From Polyangiales bacterium (GTDB taxonomy: Bacteria > Myxococcota_A > Polyangia > Polyangiales > Polyangiaceae), in the NCBI GenBank assembly GCA_038230375.1, contig JBBRNJ010000010.1:32001-96000 (forward strand): DNA of 64,000 bases, read 5' to 3'. Numbering within the stretch: position 1 is the stretch's first letter; each line of letters starts with the position of its first letter. Below, piece after piece: positions 40,845 to 50,615 of this stretch. The notes under the pieces were generated by a model. That model made no database searches and was not told the origin of the DNA. It saw only the letters and a program-made list of their open reading frames with translations. A program made the position numbers and the translations under genes.

Positions 40845-41645
40845 ATGGGGAAGAAGGCGCTGTTCGTCGGGTTGGTCAGCACGGTGCTCGCGGGCGCCAG
40901 TGCGGTTGGCAGCGGGTGCTCCGCCGCCGCAGACCTGGGCACTGACGGCGGCCTCACGTTCGACACCGGCGCCAAGAACGACACCGGGGGTGGCAGCTTG
41001 TGCCGCACGCAGAGTGACGTGTTCGGCACCGCCGGCGCGTCCACGCAGACACTGAATGCGTGCACGCCAACGGAGCTCGGCACGCTGGACACCATGATCC
41101 GCTCCTCGACCGGTACGACCTACGTCGCGCTCTACGGCATGGTCGGCGCCAGCTGCCAGAAGTGCTTGTTTTCAAGCGCGAGCGACGCAAACTGGCAATC
41201 CTTCGTCTGGGCGCCCGACATGCAACACGTGCTGTCGGATCTGGACGCGGGCGCTGGCAAGTCGACGGTCTTCGACAACTCGGTGGGAGCCTGCGTCGCG
41301 CACGTGGCGGCGGGCGGCTCTTCGTGCGGCCTGGCCGCAACGCACAACGACGAGTGCTACCAGACGTCCTGCCAGAGCTGCGCGTCCCAGTCGGACTTCG
41401 ACGGCTGCATCAGTGATCCGCAGACCGCCGCGCAGTGCGGCCAGGTCGACACGCGCGCGACGGACTGCATGACCAAGGATCAGTACAACCAGGCGCTCGT
41501 GCAGTGCGGGTTCGATCTCGGCGCGAAGACGATCGACTTCAAGGTCCTCCTCAACGTGACGTGCGGGACCGGCAAGGGCGCGAGCAGCGATGGTGGAACC
41601 GATAGCGGCAGTGACAGCGGGTCCACGGACGCGGGCCCTGGCTGA
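40845..41645 (+). CDS. Cys-rich lipoprotein
   Basis: GSGC lipobox; many Cys; DGG/DSG/DAG tail. Confidence 0.8.
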   Translation: MGKKALFVGLVSTVLAGASAVGSGCSAAADLGTDGGLTFDTGAKNDTGGGSLCRTQSDVFGTAGASTQTLNACTPTELGTLDTMIRSSTGTTYVALYGMVGASCQKCLFSSASDANWQSFVWAPDMQHVLSDLDAGAGKSTVFDNSVGACVAHVAAGGSSCGLAATHNDECYQTSCQSCASQSDFDGCISDPQTAAQCGQVDTRATDCMTKDQYNQALVQCGFDLGAKTIDFKVLLNVTCGTGKGASSDGGTDSGSDSGSTDAGPG

Positions 41646-42659: not shown

Positions 42660-44246
42660 TCAGAAGGCGACGGTCACCCAGAAGGGGACCTCGTAGCTCA
42701 CGATCACGCCGATCGCGTCGGCCGACACGCCATCCAGCGCGAGCGGCGAGAAGCCCGCGGCGACGTTCTTCCACAGCGCGAACGTCGCGCCAAGATGCCC
42801 GTGTACACCCCATGCGGTGACCGTGGTGTTGCGGAATGCGGGGCTCGAGAACGAGAACCAGTTGTAGGTGAGCGCGAAGAGCAGCTCGATCTCGATGTGC
42901 TTGCTCACCTCGAGCTCGTACGCGAAGGGCAGCCCGACAAGATCGCGCGCGCCGCAGCAGCCCTGGAAGTAGTGCTTGTACTCGAGCCCGACCTCCGCGC
43001 GTCGCGTGTCGGAGAGCTTCAGGCGGAAGCGGCCGTCGAGGCCGAGAAAGACGCTCGCTGGCACTTCGGTGCGCGCGAGCGGGAAGGACGGACCGATGAG
43101 GAGCTTGGCGCCGATGATCGTGTCGCGCTGGACGGGGAGATCGTCGTCGTGCGGGTCGACGTCGGGACGCGGGGGCTGGGGTGCGTTGGGATCGGGGGCG
43201 GTGATGGTGGGGGAGGGTGAAGGTGAAGGTGGAGGTGGAGGGGAAGGTGGAGGTGGAGGTGGAGGTGAAGGGGCTGGGGTTGGTGGTGCGGGGGTGCCTT
43301 GTGGTGGGACGGGCGTGCCGGCGGGCGGTAGGACTGTGCCTGCGGGGGGCTGTGGCTCTTGGGCTTTCGCTGGCTTTGCGTAGGCAAGGGAGAATGCCAG
43401 CAGCGTGAGCGCGATGGTGGGGCGCGGGCTTGTGGTGCTGCTTTTCAGGAGGCCCCACCTTCGTGCGAGGACCACGCAGAGGAGGACGAGGGCGATGCTC
43501 ACCCATTGCGAGGTGGAGAGGCCGAGGAATGCGCCGCGGATCGCGTCGTCTCGGAGCAGCTCGAGCCCGAAGCGCCCGCACGCATAGGTGACGAGCCACG
43601 TGATGAACGCCGCGCCGCTTCGCTCTCCGCGCGCGAGCCTGCGGTAGGCGAGGAGACTCGCGATCATCGCGACGAGGCCCTCGTAGAGCTGCGTGGGATG
43701 AACCGGGAGGCTTGGCGCGCCAGCGGGAACGAAGCCACGCTGCATGTGATCCGTTGCCGCGAGGCTGCCGGCGGGAAAGCGAACGCCGAACACGCCGGCC
43801 GTTGGCTTGCCGTAGTCGCACCCTTCCAGGTAGCAACCTGCGCGCACGAACGCGAACTCGATCCCCATACCGAGCGTCACGCGATCGAGGAATGGACGCA
43901 CCGGTTGCTTCCGCACGCGAAGCCAGAGCGGCGCCGCGACGAGCCCACCGAGCAGCCCGCCATACGCCGCGCGACCGGCCGTGAGGATGGGCGTGAGCGA
44001 GCGCTCCGCGATCGCGATCGGCAGCATGCGTACCCACTCGAAGACGTAGCCGCCAAGGAGACATGCGAGGTACGTGAGGAGAAGCGCGAATGCCTGCTCG
44101 CGCACCTCCGCACGATCGCGCTTTGCCATGCGCAGGATGAGGATGGCGCCAAGGAACGTGGCCAGACCGACCATGGTGCCGTAGTCCGGCGCGAGCCATC
44201 CCGGGATACCGTGCTGCGCGAGCCACGCGACGAGGAGCGGCCTCAT
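42660..44246 (-). CDS. Lgt-family diacylglyceryl transferase fused to a Pro linker and a predicted OM beta-barrel
   Basis: YGGLLGG, RAGCYLEGCDYG, HPTQLYE, RFGLELLRDD, STSQWVS; then a signal-like helix ending AKA|Q, a poly-Pro linker, amphipathic strands and terminal F. Confidence 0.88.
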   Translation of the reverse strand: MRPLLVAWLAQHGIPGWLAPDYGTMVGLATFLGAILILRMAKRDRAEVREQAFALLLTYLACLLGGYVFEWVRMLPIAIAERSLTPILTAGRAAYGGLLGGLVAAPLWLRVRKQPVRPFLDRVTLGMGIEFAFVRAGCYLEGCDYGKPTAGVFGVRFPAGSLAATDHMQRGFVPAGAPSLPVHPTQLYEGLVAMIASLLAYRRLARGERSGAAFITWLVTYACGRFGLELLRDDAIRGAFLGLSTSQWVSIALVLLCVVLARRWGLLKSSTTSPRPTIALTLLAFSLAYAKPAKAQEPQPPAGTVLPPAGTPVPPQGTPAPPTPAPSPPPPPPPSPPPPPSPSPSPTITAPDPNAPQPPRPDVDPHDDDLPVQRDTIIGAKLLIGPSFPLARTEVPASVFLGLDGRFRLKLSDTRRAEVGLEYKHYFQGCCGARDLVGLPFAYELEVSKHIEIELLFALTYNWFSFSSPAFRNTTVTAWGVHGHLGATFALWKNVAAGFSPLALDGVSADAIGVIVSYEVPFWVTVAF

Positions 44247-46060
44247 GACGGGTCCTCCGCGTTCTTGCGACGCTTGGGGGTCACCGTCTCGCGCCGCGTA
44301 CGCGCAGCCAGGTAGCCGATCGGCAGCAAGAGCCAGAAGAGCGTTGTGGCGGGGCCGAATGGCGGAGTGCCCTTGGGCTCGTCCGCGGTCGCGCATGCGC
44401 CGCCGTTCGCTCCAGGTCCGTCGAGAGTCTCGTCGAGCGCGTCGTCGGGGGCGTTCGGATCCGTGAGCCCGCCGCGATGACTCTTCGTGTCCACGGGGTG
44501 ACTGGGATCGACCTTCCGTCCGCCGCCCAGCGCGCCTGCGCCGGCCTCCTCGAACGCGTAGATGTCCTCCGAGTGACCGTTGTCCACGCGTCGCGCGCCC
44601 TTCGGCGTTCCAGAGTCCGTGGTGCTGGTTCCCCCGTCGTCGAAGAAGCCGCCGCTGCCGCCGCTGCTTCCGCTTCCGCTGCAGCTACCGCAGCCGCCGG
44701 AGCTCTTGGTGTTGCCGCCGGACTGGTATCCGCTGCTGCCGTAGCCAGAGGAGGAGCCGCCCGAGGTGCGCGTGTCCGACCCGCAGCCGGAGCACGTGGT
44801 GCAGCCAGAGCAAGACGTGCACGACGCGCCGCTCGAGCCGCCCGAGCACCGTCCGTTGCTGCACGCGGAGCCCACGGCGCTGCACGAAGAGCCGCACGCC
44901 TTGAACGGGTCCTGGCAGCCCTCGATCTTGACGTTGAACGAGAGATCGAAGCCGGCGTCCAGGCCGAACGGAGTGCCGGACAGACAGAGGTCGAGCGCGC
45001 GCACGCAGCGATCGTCCGTGACGAAGATGTCGGCGCTCACGAGCATGTTGGAGGAGATGTTGACGGACGTCTCCACGCTGAGCCCGGCTGGCAGGCTGCA
45101 GTTCTCCTTGGCCACGCAGCTCGCGACCGTGCAGACGTCGAGCAGCGCCATGGCGCAGAGCTCCTGCACGCGGCCGTAGATGAGCGGGCCGCCCGCGTAG
45201 ACGGGCTTCTGTCCGCCGCCGAGCAGGTACGTGCACTCGCTCTTTCCGTCGGGGTAGTCGGAGAGCGTCGCGTGGTCGTCGCAGCTTCCGCCGGCGAGGC
45301 ACGTTGCGCAGCGGCCCTGCACGTCGCCCACGCACTGGTTGAGCGTGTCGTAGAGATGATACGGGTTGCCGCGAAGCGACTGTGGCAAGACGAACGACAC
45401 GCCGCCCTGCGCTGCGTTCGTCGCGGCCGCATTGCGCACGGGCTCGCGGGCTGCCATGGCAACGAGCCACGCAGCGTTCACGTAGACCACGTCGTCGATC
45501 GCGACGGCAGCCATGGGCCAGCGCGTGACACGCATCACGCGGCGGGCGTGGGTGTCCACGAGCATCCGCGAGATGACCCGACCCGCGGCGCCCTCGAGCG
45601 CGCGCGTCTCGTCGTTTCGGGTGACGGTGGGAACGTCACCTTCGATCGGCGGTAGCGCGGGCGGCGTGGGCTTTGCGCTCGCGTCCGGCTCGGAGAACGA
45701 TCGAGTGTGAGCGACGAGCCGGCCCTTCGCGACCGTGACGTCCGCCGCGAGCAGGCAGTCCTTGTCCTGCACCGCCCGTGCGTCGTCGATGGCGCGCACC
45801 TCTTCGGCGGGCGTGATGGCACCCGCGCCCTCCGTCTCCTCCGTCACGGCCTGGGACTCGAGCGCGCCCTTGAACTTGTCGGCGAGCGCCTCCTTCGATT
45901 CGGCGGGCAGCTCCTGCACGACCGCGGGGTCTGCACCCAGCGCGTCGCGCATGGACAGCTCTGCGAGCGGCGGCGGAGAATCCGAGCACGCCTCGGTCGC
46001 CGTGATCGCGCACGCCGCGCCAAAGAGGGCCATCGCGGCCTTCGCGCGCGCCCAGCTCAT
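44243..46060 (-). CDS. Cys-rich lipoprotein with MYXO-CTERM-like tail
   Basis: SD GGAGG; TEA|C lipobox-like site; Cys/Ser/Gly-rich region; GGAC...TM...RTRR; ATGA overlap with the Lgt gene. Confidence 0.82.
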   Translation of the reverse strand: MSWARAKAAMALFGAACAITATEACSDSPPPLAELSMRDALGADPAVVQELPAESKEALADKFKGALESQAVTEETEGAGAITPAEEVRAIDDARAVQDKDCLLAADVTVAKGRLVAHTRSFSEPDASAKPTPPALPPIEGDVPTVTRNDETRALEGAAGRVISRMLVDTHARRVMRVTRWPMAAVAIDDVVYVNAAWLVAMAAREPVRNAAATNAAQGGVSFVLPQSLRGNPYHLYDTLNQCVGDVQGRCATCLAGGSCDDHATLSDYPDGKSECTYLLGGGQKPVYAGGPLIYGRVQELCAMALLDVCTVASCVAKENCSLPAGLSVETSVNISSNMLVSADIFVTDDRCVRALDLCLSGTPFGLDAGFDLSFNVKIEGCQDPFKACGSSCSAVGSACSNGRCSGGSSGASCTSCSGCTTCSGCGSDTRTSGGSSSGYGSSGYQSGGNTKSSGGCGSCSGSGSSGGSGGFFDDGGTSTTDSGTPKGARRVDNGHSEDIYAFEEAGAGALGGGRKVDPSHPVDTKSHRGGLTDPNAPDDALDETLDGPGANGGACATADEPKGTPPFGPATTLFWLLLPIGYLAARTRRETVTPKRRKNAEDPS

Positions 46061-46134
46061 CGACCCCTCCGCATGTCCGAGGAAACCTACCATCATCAGT
46101 GGACGCTCGCGCTCGGTTTTGCGATACCTCCGGA

Positions 46135-46695
46135 ATGCGAAACATCCTCCTCGCAGCCGGCCTCGCTGGCGTCGCTGGCGTCGCTGGCCTCCTCGGCTGC
46201 AAGTCCGAGCCCGACAGGGACGTCTCGAAGCGAAAGCAGATCGAGCAGGTCGTCCAGGTCGAGGCGATCCAGAACGTCTCTGCGAAGTTTCGGATGAAGA
46301 TCCCCGAAGGCTTCGTGGACGGACGCTCGATGGGCATGACGTTCGTCTCCGAGCAGGGCCTGCTGGGCCCCACGATCCACCTTGCTCTACGCATCGACTC
46401 GAGCGTGCCGAAGGATGCGGTCGACGCGATGAAGTACAACGATCAGAGCGAGATCTCGTTCGCGAATCGCGCTCTTCCGGATGGCTTCGTGGTCACCAAC
46501 ACCCCGAAGAAGGGCGACACGAACTACTACACGGTGGCCGTGCGCAGCATCCCCGGGCTGCCGACCCTGCGGTCCGGGACCAAGCTCGTGTTCCTGTGCG
46601 AGGTCACGTACGGCGGAGCGAAGGAGCTGCACCGTGAGAAGGAGCTCGTTGCGTGGATGGAGTCGCTGTGCACGGACGCCGCGCTCCAACCTTGA
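46135..46695 (+). CDS. Lipoprotein of unknown function
   Basis: LLGC lipobox. Confidence 0.75.
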   Translation: MRNILLAAGLAGVAGVAGLLGCKSEPDRDVSKRKQIEQVVQVEAIQNVSAKFRMKIPEGFVDGRSMGMTFVSEQGLLGPTIHLALRIDSSVPKDAVDAMKYNDQSEISFANRALPDGFVVTNTPKKGDTNYYTVAVRSIPGLPTLRSGTKLVFLCEVTYGGAKELHREKELVAWMESLCTDAALQP

Positions 46696-48428: not shown

Positions 48429-48479
48429 TCTTCGTGGTGTTTGAGCGGGCCCTTCTGGGGCTATCATGGGCGATCCACG

Positions 48480-50615
48480 ATGGATGACAGGCGCGATCCC
48501 AGGCCCGAGGGCGAACCGGCAAGCAAGCGTGTCGAGGTGATCGAGAGCCGCAACGCGGCCACGAGCGCCGTGCTCGATCTGAAGCGAGAGCTGATCCGGC
48601 TCACGGAGCGAGCTCAGGTCGTCGAGTCCTCGCTGACGGTGGAGCGACGTCAGCGCGGCGAAGCGCTCGCCGAGGTCGAGACCCACAAGGGGCGCGAGGC
48701 CGCCGCACAGGAGCGCGCGAAGGCCGCCGAGGAGCGCGCGAAGGCCGCCGAGGAGCGGACGAAGATCGCCGAGGTGCGCGCGAAGACCTCGGAGGGGCGG
48801 TCTCGAACGGCCGAAGATCGCGCGAAGATGACCGAGGACCGCGCGAACGCCGCGATCGAGCGCGCGAAGAAGGCGGAGGACCGCGCGAAGGCGAGCGAGG
48901 ACCAGGCGAAGGTCGCCGAGGACGAGGCCCGTGCCGCCGAGGAGCGGGCGATCACCGCGGAGGAGCACGCGAAGGTCTCGCACGAGCGCGCGAAGGCCGC
49001 CGAGGAGCGTGCGATCACCGCGGAGGAGCGCGCAAAGGCCACCGAGGAGCGCGCGCGGGCAACCGAGGAACGCGCGAAGGCCGCGGAGGAGCGCGCGAAG
49101 GCATCCGAGGACCGCGCCAAGGCTGCGGAGGACCGCGCAAGGGCCACCGACGTGCTCGCGAGGGCCGCGGAGGCGTTCGCCATGGAAGCGGAGGACCGCG
49201 CAAAGGCGGCCGAGCAGCAAGCCGAGGCAGAGAAGGAGAGGGCGGACGCATCGGAGGCCGCGGAGGCGGCGATAAGCCGCAACCTCCTCGAGCTCCACGA
49301 TGAAGTGAAGACGGCGTTCTCGCGCATTCCCTCGTTCGCGCCGCCGCCGCCGAGCGCAACGGAGACCGCGGTCGATCAGCTCGGCGTGGAGGACATCCCC
49401 GGCCCCGCTGCCATGCCGCGGATGTCGCGCTCGAAGCCACCGTCGCAAGCGCCCTCGCAACCATTGCGCCCGCTCTCCCAGCCTCCGTCAATCCCATCCC
49501 CCGCATCGCAGCCGCCGTCGGAGCCACCGAAGAAGGTGGTGGAGCCTGACCCGTTTCCTTCCATCAGACCTCCGCCGCCGGCGATCTACTCCAGTCCGCC
49601 GCCGCCTCAGCGGCTCCCTCCACCGCCCACTCCGCGACCGAAGCTGCGCTCGAATCCGCCCGACGCCACGCCAGCAGCGCCTGGGGTGCAGACCGTTGCG
49701 CGCGCCGTGACGCCGCGTCCGCCGCCCGTCGTACTGGACGTGCCGGTCGCCATGGGCTCCGTCGATCCGCCGATCGTGACGGCGCCGTCCATGTCGCGCT
49801 CCACGCCGGAGCTCGCCTCCCTGGATGACGAGTGGTCGAAGCCGATGCTGCTGGATATGCCTCTGCCGGTGCGGCAGGAGCGAGACGCATTGCTGCGTGA
49901 GCTCTCGGATCCAGAGAGCGCGCTCGCGGCCGTTGTCGCGCTCAAGGGGCGCGACTGGCTGAGAGGTCTCCCGCCCGAGTCGCTCGTGAACGACCTTGCC
50001 GCCATCGACTACGACGACGAGTGTGCGGTGTTCGAGATCGCGCGCGGGTGGGAGCGTGGGGCCATGTCCCAGTCGGTCGTCATTCATCTCCAGGCCGAGA
50101 CCGACGGCAAGCGCCGCGAGCACGACGCGTGGCTCGTGCAGCATCTTGGCGCCGCGACGGATTGCCAGGCGATCTGCGACATCGCGGTGCGACGAGAAGA
50201 GGCGACGGCCACGCGAATCTGGCTCCTCAAGGCGCTGGCGCGGCTGGCTGCGGCGCACTCGATCGACTGGCAGGAGTTGCTCACACCCATGATGATCATT
50301 GCGTTCGACCCCGACGCGACGATTCGCGATGGCGCGACGGCGGTGATCGATGCGCTGCCCAAGGGCGACGAGAAGCGCCGCATTCTCCTGGATATCCTGC
50401 GCAAGGACGATGACGAGAACGTCCTGTCGCGCGCGATCCAGGCCATCGGGGGCACGTTGCCCATCGAGATCGGAACCGCTCTGGCGGAGCGCCTCCTCAG
50501 CCACCGCAGCCCGCGCGTACAGGACGCCGTACGCGACCTCATTGCGCTTGCGCGCGCGCGTCGGTCCCAGATGCCGCCACCTCGCGGCAGCATGCCGCCC
50601 GGCTCCAGCAGCTAG
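48480..50615 (+). CDS. Coiled-coil heptad-repeat + Pro-rich + HEAT-like protein
   Basis: More than 20 AEERAKA-type heptads (21-bp repeats, ~48700-49215); Pro-rich linker; helical repeats such as DPDATIR and HRSPRVQ. Confidence 0.8.
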   Translation: MDDRRDPRPEGEPASKRVEVIESRNAATSAVLDLKRELIRLTERAQVVESSLTVERRQRGEALAEVETHKGREAAAQERAKAAEERAKAAEERTKIAEVRAKTSEGRSRTAEDRAKMTEDRANAAIERAKKAEDRAKASEDQAKVAEDEARAAEERAITAEEHAKVSHERAKAAEERAITAEERAKATEERARATEERAKAAEERAKASEDRAKAAEDRARATDVLARAAEAFAMEAEDRAKAAEQQAEAEKERADASEAAEAAISRNLLELHDEVKTAFSRIPSFAPPPPSATETAVDQLGVEDIPGPAAMPRMSRSKPPSQAPSQPLRPLSQPPSIPSPASQPPSEPPKKVVEPDPFPSIRPPPPAIYSSPPPPQRLPPPPTPRPKLRSNPPDATPAAPGVQTVARAVTPRPPPVVLDVPVAMGSVDPPIVTAPSMSRSTPELASLDDEWSKPMLLDMPLPVRQERDALLRELSDPESALAAVVALKGRDWLRGLPPESLVNDLAAIDYDDECAVFEIARGWERGAMSQSVVIHLQAETDGKRREHDAWLVQHLGAATDCQAICDIAVRREEATATRIWLLKALARLAAAHSIDWQELLTPMMIIAFDPDATIRDGATAVIDALPKGDEKRRILLDILRKDDDENVLSRAIQAIGGTLPIEIGTALAERLLSHRSPRVQDAVRDLIALARARRSQMPPPRGSMPPGSSS

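Follow-up and report, generated by a model that had tools for sequence, protein, structure and literature searches.

The known job of the diacylglyceryl transferase Lgt is the first step of N-terminal lipoprotein maturation. For C-terminal sorting tags with an invariant cysteine, lipidation is thought to precede cleavage, and the enzyme that lipidates the cysteine of the MYXO-CTERM tag is described as 'unknown', with an 'Lgt-like acyl-transferase' proposed for this step (Guo, Haft and Wall 2025, PMC11980579). A more compact arrangement is the MrtJ system (Haft; PMC11980579), in which one enzyme is paired with a single tagged client, the JDVT-CTERM protein, in a conserved two-gene neighbourhood, and the tag again has an invariant cysteine. 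In that system the partner of the client is a CPBP intramembrane protease, and the hosts given in that part of the literature are beta- and gammaproteobacteria, never Myxococcota. Here we describe a two-gene locus from a Polyangiales bacterium (GCA_038230375.1, contig JBBRNJ010000010.1), found in a stretch of 64,000 nucleotides (the window, to which all coordinates refer). Gene 1 (P0001) encodes an exported, cysteine-rich client protein with a C-terminal tag, and gene 2 (P0002) encodes an Lgt paralog. By analogy, the nearest published design is the MrtJ/JDVT-CTERM cassette (PMC11980579), from which the present locus differs in its enzyme, an Lgt-family transferase, and in its host, a member of the Myxococcota. 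Our favoured reading, to which we give a probability of roughly one half on the strength of sequence comparisons and structural models, is that the dedicated paralog lipidates the cysteine of the C-terminal tag of this single client.

The client and the Lgt paralog form a conserved cassette in Polyangia. An earlier note, made from the letters of the window, had pointed to a two-gene unit with an ATGA overlap. This overlap is indeed present, with the stop codon TGA of gene 1 and the start codon ATG of gene 2 sharing ATGA (minus strand ...GAC CCG TCA TGA GGC CGC...), and the same overlap and pair recur in dozens of other genomes, where they were recovered from the client side as well as from the Lgt side. 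A scan with a client pattern, restricted to one genome per species, gave 20 loci in Myxococcota-type metagenome-assembled genomes. In 19 of these a clade Lgt lies immediately next to the client on the same strand, with 37-94% identity to P0002; the 20th is on a fragment that stops ~550 nt past the match. Starting from the Lgt, 61 of 401 same-class genomes match at E<=1e-32, and among the 28 loci examined a tail-bearing open reading frame (ORF) ends at the Lgt start in 25 (tail hidden Markov model (HMM), E<=0.01). Loci L084 and L089 have a variant tail by eye, and at one locus the Lgt begins at base 20 of its contig, which leaves no upstream sequence to read. At least seven of the 28 loci have tails identical to those of client-first loci and probably come from the same genomes. 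Among more distant Lgt loci (14 regions were taken, one of which, L090, holds only the upstream flank of L058 with no Lgt, leaving 13), a tail-bearing client is present at 12, upstream in 11 cases and downstream in one, and the 13th is a housekeeping-type Lgt. A script found the client in 44 of the 51 rows of an overlap set that includes some places twice, and in all 44 it overlaps the Lgt start by 4 nt. Across 16 loci the client and the Lgt are the only conserved genes; a third gene, such as a protease, LspA or a secretion gene, was sought at these loci and none was found in common beyond close relatives.

Two in-frame fusions extend this linkage. In genome G022, a single ORF of 690 aa encodes the Lgt domain, then a lipobox helix and the complete client, and P0085 (721 aa) is a second Lgt-client fusion. 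In the cultured Pendulispora albinea, client and Lgt are consecutive protein accessions on one 12.2-Mb contig. The Lgt clade comprises at least 151 proteins at E<=1e-40 in a large protein collection, with members in Sorangium cellulosum So ce56, many Sorangium strains, Polyangium, Labilithrix, Byssovorax and Pendulispora. Across the phylum the cassette is patchy, with a clade match in 5 of 401 sampled genomes. We consider it likely that the paralog acts on its neighbour. Some variants were seen in passing: a metagenomic clade Lgt of 723 aa, P0076, has precomputed Pfam assignments to PF12708 and PF00295 (pectate-lyase-like / glycosyl hydrolase 28), which suggests a further kind of fusion partner. 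In the outer clade, the Lgt at 5106-6779 of L035 (G017:C8) has an extra ~280-aa N-terminal domain and is followed by a small tagged client, and the ~590-aa clients of L097 and L098 (G582:C22 and G630:C969) have 53-54 cysteines in CN(Q/D/S)CNSDC-type repeats, a longer tag and an N-terminal signal of ambiguous type.

Residues 22-260 of P0002 match the Pfam family LGT (PF01790) with 116.9 bits and an E-value of 1.2e-33, well above the gathering cut-off of 24.9. The motifs VRAGC, HPTQLYE and YACGRFGLELLR are all present, in agreement with the earlier note. On the equivalog model TIGR00544 the protein scores 60.8 bits (cut-off 118.9), and it stays below the cut-offs of all NCBIfam Lgt equivalogs. 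A phmmer search of P0002 against PDB sequences gave no match; E. coli Lgt (5AZB) was reached only with a profile of the P0002 clade (E 5.6e-32). By these scores gene 2 is a member of the Lgt superfamily and not an equivalog of housekeeping Lgt. With the housekeeping enzyme (E. coli, PDB 5AZB/5AZC, PF01790) it shares the domain, the signature loop and the arginine, tyrosine and glutamate residues of the transfer site, the aligned pairs (P0002/E. coli) being R135/R143, R225/R239, Y221/Y235, E229/E243, R232/R246, Y22/Y26 and G146/G154; the roles of the E. coli residues are given by Mao et al. 2016 (PMC4728403). Unlike the housekeeping enzyme, P0002 scores below the equivalog level, is one of seven in its genome, is translationally coupled or fused to one client and has a predicted outer-membrane barrel attached, and its proposed acceptor would be a cysteine upstream of an inverted C-terminal helix, with no lipobox.

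The source genome (9.0 Mb in 179 contigs) has seven loci with an LGT domain. The best TIGR00544 scores among the six others are 101.2 and 97.9, and none reaches the cut-off. This agrees with the suggestion that gene 2 is a non-housekeeping copy and not the only lgt. In a tree of 47 Lgt domains (L043 and L054, which are frameshifted, and L050, a fragment lacking the Lgt, were left out), the client-linked domains fall into one clade of 25 rows, with a support of 96 in the Shimodaira-Hasegawa-like approximate likelihood ratio test (SH-aLRT). In this clade 23 rows are client-linked, as are all 18 rows of its core (support 99), which places gene 2 in a separate Lgt clade where linkage to a tagged client is nearly universal. 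Two clade members, L020 (G006:C10) and L060 (G264:C1), have no detected tagged client; each is oriented divergently beside a small secreted peptide with the end ...(G/N)CGC(S/A)PCWGPPAPP... and a ferritin-like di-iron-type protein, which may represent a different client type. Elsewhere in the source genome, at G000:C7:93389-95624, a 503-aa ORF with 20 cysteines and the N-terminus MELRDRTFLGITDSLCPTCLEEG is overlapped at its end by another, short Lgt paralog (~226-268 aa).

The tag of gene 1 consists of GGA-C556, a 17-residue spacer, the helix LFWLLLPIGYLAA, the basic cluster RTRR and 15 more residues, so that the GGAC...TM...RTRR tail described earlier is present. In 18 aligned tails (alignment A4) the cysteine and the helix proline (Cys556 and P580 here) are invariant, and the tryptophan four residues ahead of that proline (W576) is nearly so. 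Searched against 82,055 open-frame ends of the source genome, the tail HMM finds gene 1 alone (2e-14); when the model is built without gene 1 and its closest relative, gene 1 is still the single match (5.9e-6, with the next ends at 0.11-0.13). The tag is thus private to one protein. Like the MYXO-CTERM/MrtX system (TIGR03901, NF040914; PMC11980579), the cassette combines an invariant cysteine, a helix and an arginine cluster on signal-peptide proteins of Myxococcota, and the client tail resembles the TraA tag printed in PMC11980579. The earlier description of the tail as MYXO-CTERM-like therefore stands for the layout of cysteine, helix and basic cluster, and fails on the family model, since the window tail reaches 7.9 bits on TIGR03901 against a cut-off of 20. 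In fact none of 20 tails passes 20 bits, and among 19 further tails four gave sub-threshold scores (17.8, 14.8, 12.5 and 10.8). The MYXO-CTERM helix is described as having no proline or charged residue (bioRxiv 10.1101/2023.06.07.544157), whereas the helix proline is invariant in the cassette tag. These sub-cut-off scores and the invariant proline rule out the tag as a MYXO-CTERM domain. The two also differ in number, the cassette tag occurring once per genome and MYXO-CTERM dozens of times per genome with one myxosortase, and in the lack of a CPBP protease linked to the cassette in the 16 loci inspected. Elsewhere the source genome does have true MYXO-CTERM hits, 16 in number, together with a single myxosortase core domain, and the tail HMM matches none of these 16. 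Separately, a protein at G000:C129:73-1278 has a MYXO-CTERM-looking end (...GC...helix...RRGYARRR) and is not among the 16 hits above the TIGR03901 cut-off; an Lgt paralog lies ~2 kb downstream (G000:C129:3415-4308) with two ORFs between, which may be a coincidence.

Which cysteine is the target? The earlier note had left two candidates, one in an N-terminal lipobox and one in the tag; comparative data and the complex model described below favour the C-terminal residue, and the N-terminal one is now the less favoured. The N-terminal lipobox-like cysteine is certainly there, as Cys25 of '...ITATEAC', and its T-E-A-C is non-canonical at -3 and -2 relative to the pattern [LVI][ASTVI][GAS]C. In most client homologs the aligned cysteine belongs to a canonical lipobox (e.g. 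LVGC, LIGC or LSAC). Directly behind the cysteine the conserved N-domain opens with PP...L.(L/M)RDAL, and the client alignment shows invariant W181, P182 and Y193-V-N further on. It is conceivable that the paralog is dedicated to its client and acts on Cys25, with PP...L.LRDAL as an extended recognition motif and the tag as an anchor or docking handle. This would fit the presence of a lipobox-like cysteine in 18 of 18 core-clade clients, the residues right behind it being among the best conserved of the protein, the position of the lipobox helix directly behind the Lgt domain in the fusions, and the non-canonical T-E-A-C of the window, which might need a special enzyme. Yet ordinary lipoboxes, which the general Lgt should accept, are found in most homologs, and several cassettes have lost the cysteine. 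The clients of L070 and L078, whose core-clade Lgt partners are 52-53% identical and overlap them by 4 nt, have cysteine-free signal peptides, yet PP...LRDAL, the Cys tract and the tag are all still present; the representatives P0020, P0175 and P0190 resemble them. In the outer clade, small clients lacking both lipobox and N-domain have either AFA/G-type signal peptides (L061, L093) or N-terminal anchors (L034, L035, L100; in L035 the anchor is free of any cysteine), and the Cys-rich tract and tag persist in all five. The Lgt partners of L070, L078, L061, L093, L034 and L100 retain R.GC, GCDYG, HPT.LY and Y...R...E..R, and that of L035 has the same motif residues in alignment A2. The loss of the lipobox cysteine in some clients, with tag and Lgt intact, indicates that the cassette-wide feature is the tag with its tract and not the N-terminal cysteine. 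Moreover, the complex model places the tag cysteine, beyond the helix alone, at the signature loop of the enzyme. We consider modification of Cys25 in place of the tag cysteine unlikely, if a serious alternative.

To model the complex, Lgt residues 1-275 (25-row alignment) were combined with the C-terminal 70 residues of the client (18-row alignment). The model gave an ipSAE score of 0.82 (0.83, 0.82 and 0.79 in individual runs), and the best of three controls gave 0.00. Of 157 solved complexes 116 attain this mark, as do 2 of 215 mismatched pairs, counts that are rough since our own alignments were used. Contact agreement between runs was at least 81%, and the predicted local distance difference test (pLDDT) of the partner at least 66. 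The tail helix (residues 37-57 of the modelled piece, including the conserved tryptophan and proline) packs against transmembrane helices 1 and 2 (TM1 and TM2), parallel to TM1, in an orientation that corresponds to the correct membrane topology. Tail residues 20-21, of which 21 is Cys556, share the interface with Lgt residues 137-138, 141 and 143-144, which belong to the signature loop beside R135.

Such a high-confidence helix-helix interface also looks like a stable complex, and the pair might have no enzyme-substrate relation at all. The tail helix would then serve the paralog as a stable subunit or as a regulator, for instance by way of thiol or metal contacts to Cys138 and Cys143 of the enzyme, and the pair could have a role in, e.g., metal handling or envelope tethering. 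The 4-nt overlap would suit the stoichiometric production expected of subunits. The catalytic residues bear on this too: E. coli H103, N146 and E151 correspond to Tyr95, Cys138 and Cys143 in P0002, and H103 and E151 are essential in E. coli Lgt (PMC4728403). Replacements of the same kind are present in 25 of 25 aligned myxobacterial Lgt domains, including housekeeping-like ones, and the H103/E151 replacements occur in all seven Lgt paralogs of the source genome, at least one of which must be active. Cys138 is likewise invariant in all 25 of these domains and hence no peculiarity of the clade, and the arginine, tyrosine and glutamate residues for transfer are kept throughout the clade. We therefore assign only a small chance to the subunit explanation, and to the roles in metal handling or envelope tethering that would go with it.

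A different acceptor within the client is less probable still. The paralog could lipidate cysteines of the tract (C/S/G or D/S/C repeats) instead of, or besides, the tag cysteine, yielding a multiply lipidated product. In all clients seen, down to the small ones without an N-domain, a Cys-rich low-complexity tract does stand before the tag. Against this, the positions and number of the tract cysteines vary widely (from 9 to 54 cysteines per client), the tag cysteine is the sole invariant one, and the client model shows a disordered tract that lies well away from the membrane helix, which makes this explanation improbable. That gene 2 is an ordinary redundant lgt copy whose adjacency to gene 1 is meaningless, as the many Lgt copies of myxobacterial genomes (seven here) might suggest, is hardly credible in view of the same overlapping pair at dozens of loci, the two fusions and an Lgt clade of its own.

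Lipidation of the tag cysteine by the dedicated paralog would work as follows. The self-contained two-gene cassette would supply an Lgt-family diacylglyceryl transferase paralog that serves one exported client. The client would cross the inner membrane and be held there by its private C-terminal tag (cysteine, spacer, Pro/Trp helix and basic cluster), and the paralog would dock the tag helix against its own TM1 and TM2. Diacylglycerol would be moved from phosphatidylglycerol onto Cys556. The client, a substrate with the opposite topology to that of a normal lipobox, would thereby gain a lipid anchor at its C-terminus. Any N-terminal lipobox would be left to the general pathway, and in 'long' systems such as the present one the barrel of gene 2, behind an internal signal peptide, would probably be freed by signal peptidase I. 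The chemistry, the target cysteine, any later cleavage and the final location are what we infer here.

Several points weigh against this proposal. Its basis is sequence and models throughout. Most core-clade clients carry both cysteines, and given the lipobox-like residue in all 18 examined, those loci cannot separate the two sites. The two residues essential in E. coli, H103 and E151, are replaced in P0002 by Tyr95 and Cys143. Two members of the Lgt clade, L020 and L060, are without a detected client. The controls of the complex model were unrelated natural proteins and not membrane helices, so a generic helix might dock equally well, and conservation shows no enrichment at the interface (0.69 vs 0.71 overall; 0.63 vs 0.72 within residues 15-70). 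Furthermore, according to Mao et al. (PMC4728403) the 'front cleft' between TM1 and TM2 is the entry for phosphatidylglycerol, and the acceptor peptide is placed at the side cleft between TM3 and TM7; the modelled docking site of the tag helix thus coincides with the lipid-entry cleft. For a substrate of inverted topology, this mismatch may or may not matter. Finally, no protease is linked to the cassette at the 16 loci, making later removal of the helix a conjecture.

The C-terminal extension of gene 2 comprises an internal signal-peptide-like segment, a proline-rich linker and a ~155-residue domain. For the last, AlphaFold2 (AF2) predicts eight long strands (pLDDT 81.4), and a Foldseek search with this model returned 17 PDB matches at E<=0.001, all 17 of them outer-membrane barrels, with NspA (1p4t) at E 2.6e-5 and TMt 0.73, and OmpA, OmpX, Ail, OmpW and PagL also matched. 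No Pfam family was found for the domain at E<=0.1 (e.g. PF13505); among its ESM Atlas neighbours PF13505 is present in 23% of members, a lead whose direction agrees with a barrel. The 'OM partner' of the earlier note is a predicted 8-stranded outer-membrane barrel within gene 2 itself. The predicted fold is that of small 8-stranded outer-membrane barrels (NspA 1p4t, OmpX, Ail, the OmpA N-domain, PagL), and the P0002 barrel ends in an aromatic residue; it differs from these in being the C-terminal domain of an inner-membrane enzyme, from which an internal AxA signal peptide and a Pro-rich linker separate it. An AxA-type helix end behind the enzyme domain was seen in every extended Lgt examined (AYA/K, ASA/G, ARA/D, ALA/Q, VHA/Q, ADA/Q, AAA/Q and AHA/Q), and the recurrence of these sites suggests release of the barrel by signal peptidase I; the fusions could likewise release the client at their internal lipobox. 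Barrel-extended Lgts (at least 480 aa) make up 8 rows of the 51-row overlap set, all adjoining long Cys-rich clients, and long clients are also found without a barrel (L040, L057, L070, L078, L086, L088). Clade proteins of So ce56, Polyangium and Pendulispora share the build of Lgt, AxA helix, linker and barrel, and such Lgt-barrel proteins occur in the cultured Sorangium cellulosum So ce56 and Polyangium fumosum. In P0036, P0033 and P0023 (Pendulispora and relatives) and in L037, the internal signal peptide is followed by an extra small beta-rich module (...IVL.TGER..G.I.E..PGDH..I.L..G...), and the Pro-rich linker comes after it.

The client itself belongs to no family in Pfam or NCBIfam scans of P0001. 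Its start codon is the ATG at 46060, with an alternative ATG at 46096. The long Cys/Ser/Gly tract that had been noticed in gene 1 is real, these three residues making up 68% of residues 375-470, and the middle Cys-rich domain is limited to 'long' clients. For the AF2 model of the client, Foldseek found no PDB match at E<=0.001, and a wide VIA-align search stayed within the noise (best Z 3.9). Word-based searches with P0001 gave 18 and 11 matches and missed many relatives, so that a profile of the N-domain was needed; this yields 184 representative clusters at E<=1e-3, of which 101 reach E<=1e-30. In 94 of 99 newly listed client representatives of at least 300 aa the tail is present (by HMM or regular expression), and of the remaining five, three can be seen by eye to have a variant tail, and two seem to be truncated. 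The positions of all features are collected in Table 1.

Table 1 Features of the two-gene cassette in the window
Feature	Position	Strand	Basis and remarks
Gene 1 (P0001), client	44243..46060	-	ORF and translation; 605 aa, exported, 27 Cys
Gene 1 signal peptide with lipobox-like Cys25 (ITATEA-C)	45986..46060	-	Alignment A1 and N-termini of 18 clients
Gene 1 conserved N-domain, residues 26-210	45431..45985	-	Alignment; AF2 pLDDT ~80
Gene 1 middle Cys-rich helical domain, residues 227-362	44975..45382	-	Cys conserved in A1; pLDDT ~70
Gene 1 Cys/Ser/Gly tract, then acidic disordered stretch, residues 375-550	44411..44938	-	Composition; pLDDT <50
Gene 1 C-terminal tag, residues 553-590	44291..44404	-	Alignment A4, tail HMM, complex model
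Gene 2 (P0002), Lgt paralog and predicted outer-membrane barrel	42660..44246	-	ORF; 528 aa
Gene 2 Lgt domain, residues 1-275	43422..44246	-	Pfam LGT
Gene 2 internal signal-peptide-like segment, residues 263-290	43377..43460	-	Sequence: basic residues, hydrophobic helix, AYA/K end
Gene 2 proline-rich linker, residues 291-372	43131..43376	-	55% Pro over residues 297-345
Gene 2 predicted 8-stranded outer-membrane beta-barrel, residues 373-528, ends ...VAF	42663..43130	-	AF2 and Foldseek

The neighbours of the cassette in the window are unrelated to it (an AurF-like protein, an LTXXQ protein, a biopterin hydroxylase and an ADI-like protein). Directly flanking it are two lipoprotein-like ORFs on the plus strand, one Cys-rich and of 266 aa (40845-41645), the other of 198 aa with LLGC (46099-46695); neither has a Pfam family, and their adjacency to the cassette is not conserved in other genomes. 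Further away, a 724-aa ORF (48441-50615, plus strand) contains a long run of heptad-like AEERAKA-type repeats with a Pro-rich region behind it, and has no Pfam family at E<=0.001.

The listings of a literature search gave no paper on dedicated myxobacterial Lgt paralogs. The client family, with its 184 representative clusters, and the new tag are so far without a family model. The cassette ties an Lgt paralog to a single tagged protein by a conserved 4-nt overlap, by fusions and by a pair that is kept after loss of the N-terminal cysteine. It turns the general 'Lgt-like' hypothesis into a two-gene experiment, and it is present in cultured strains. More tentatively, the Lgt fold may be able to lipidate a cysteine upstream of an inverted C-terminal membrane helix, with the cassette as the one-enzyme, one-client form of this activity; we regard this as possible rather than probable. 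If the proposal is true, gene 2 would be a natural 'polyprotein' that frees an outer-membrane barrel (in fused forms, the client) via an internal signal peptide, and the cassette would offer a small, tractable system to prove the lipidation of a C-terminal tag by Lgt. Lgt-family enzymes, whether paralogs or the general one, would then be the missing lipid transferases for Cys-bearing tags such as MYXO-CTERM.

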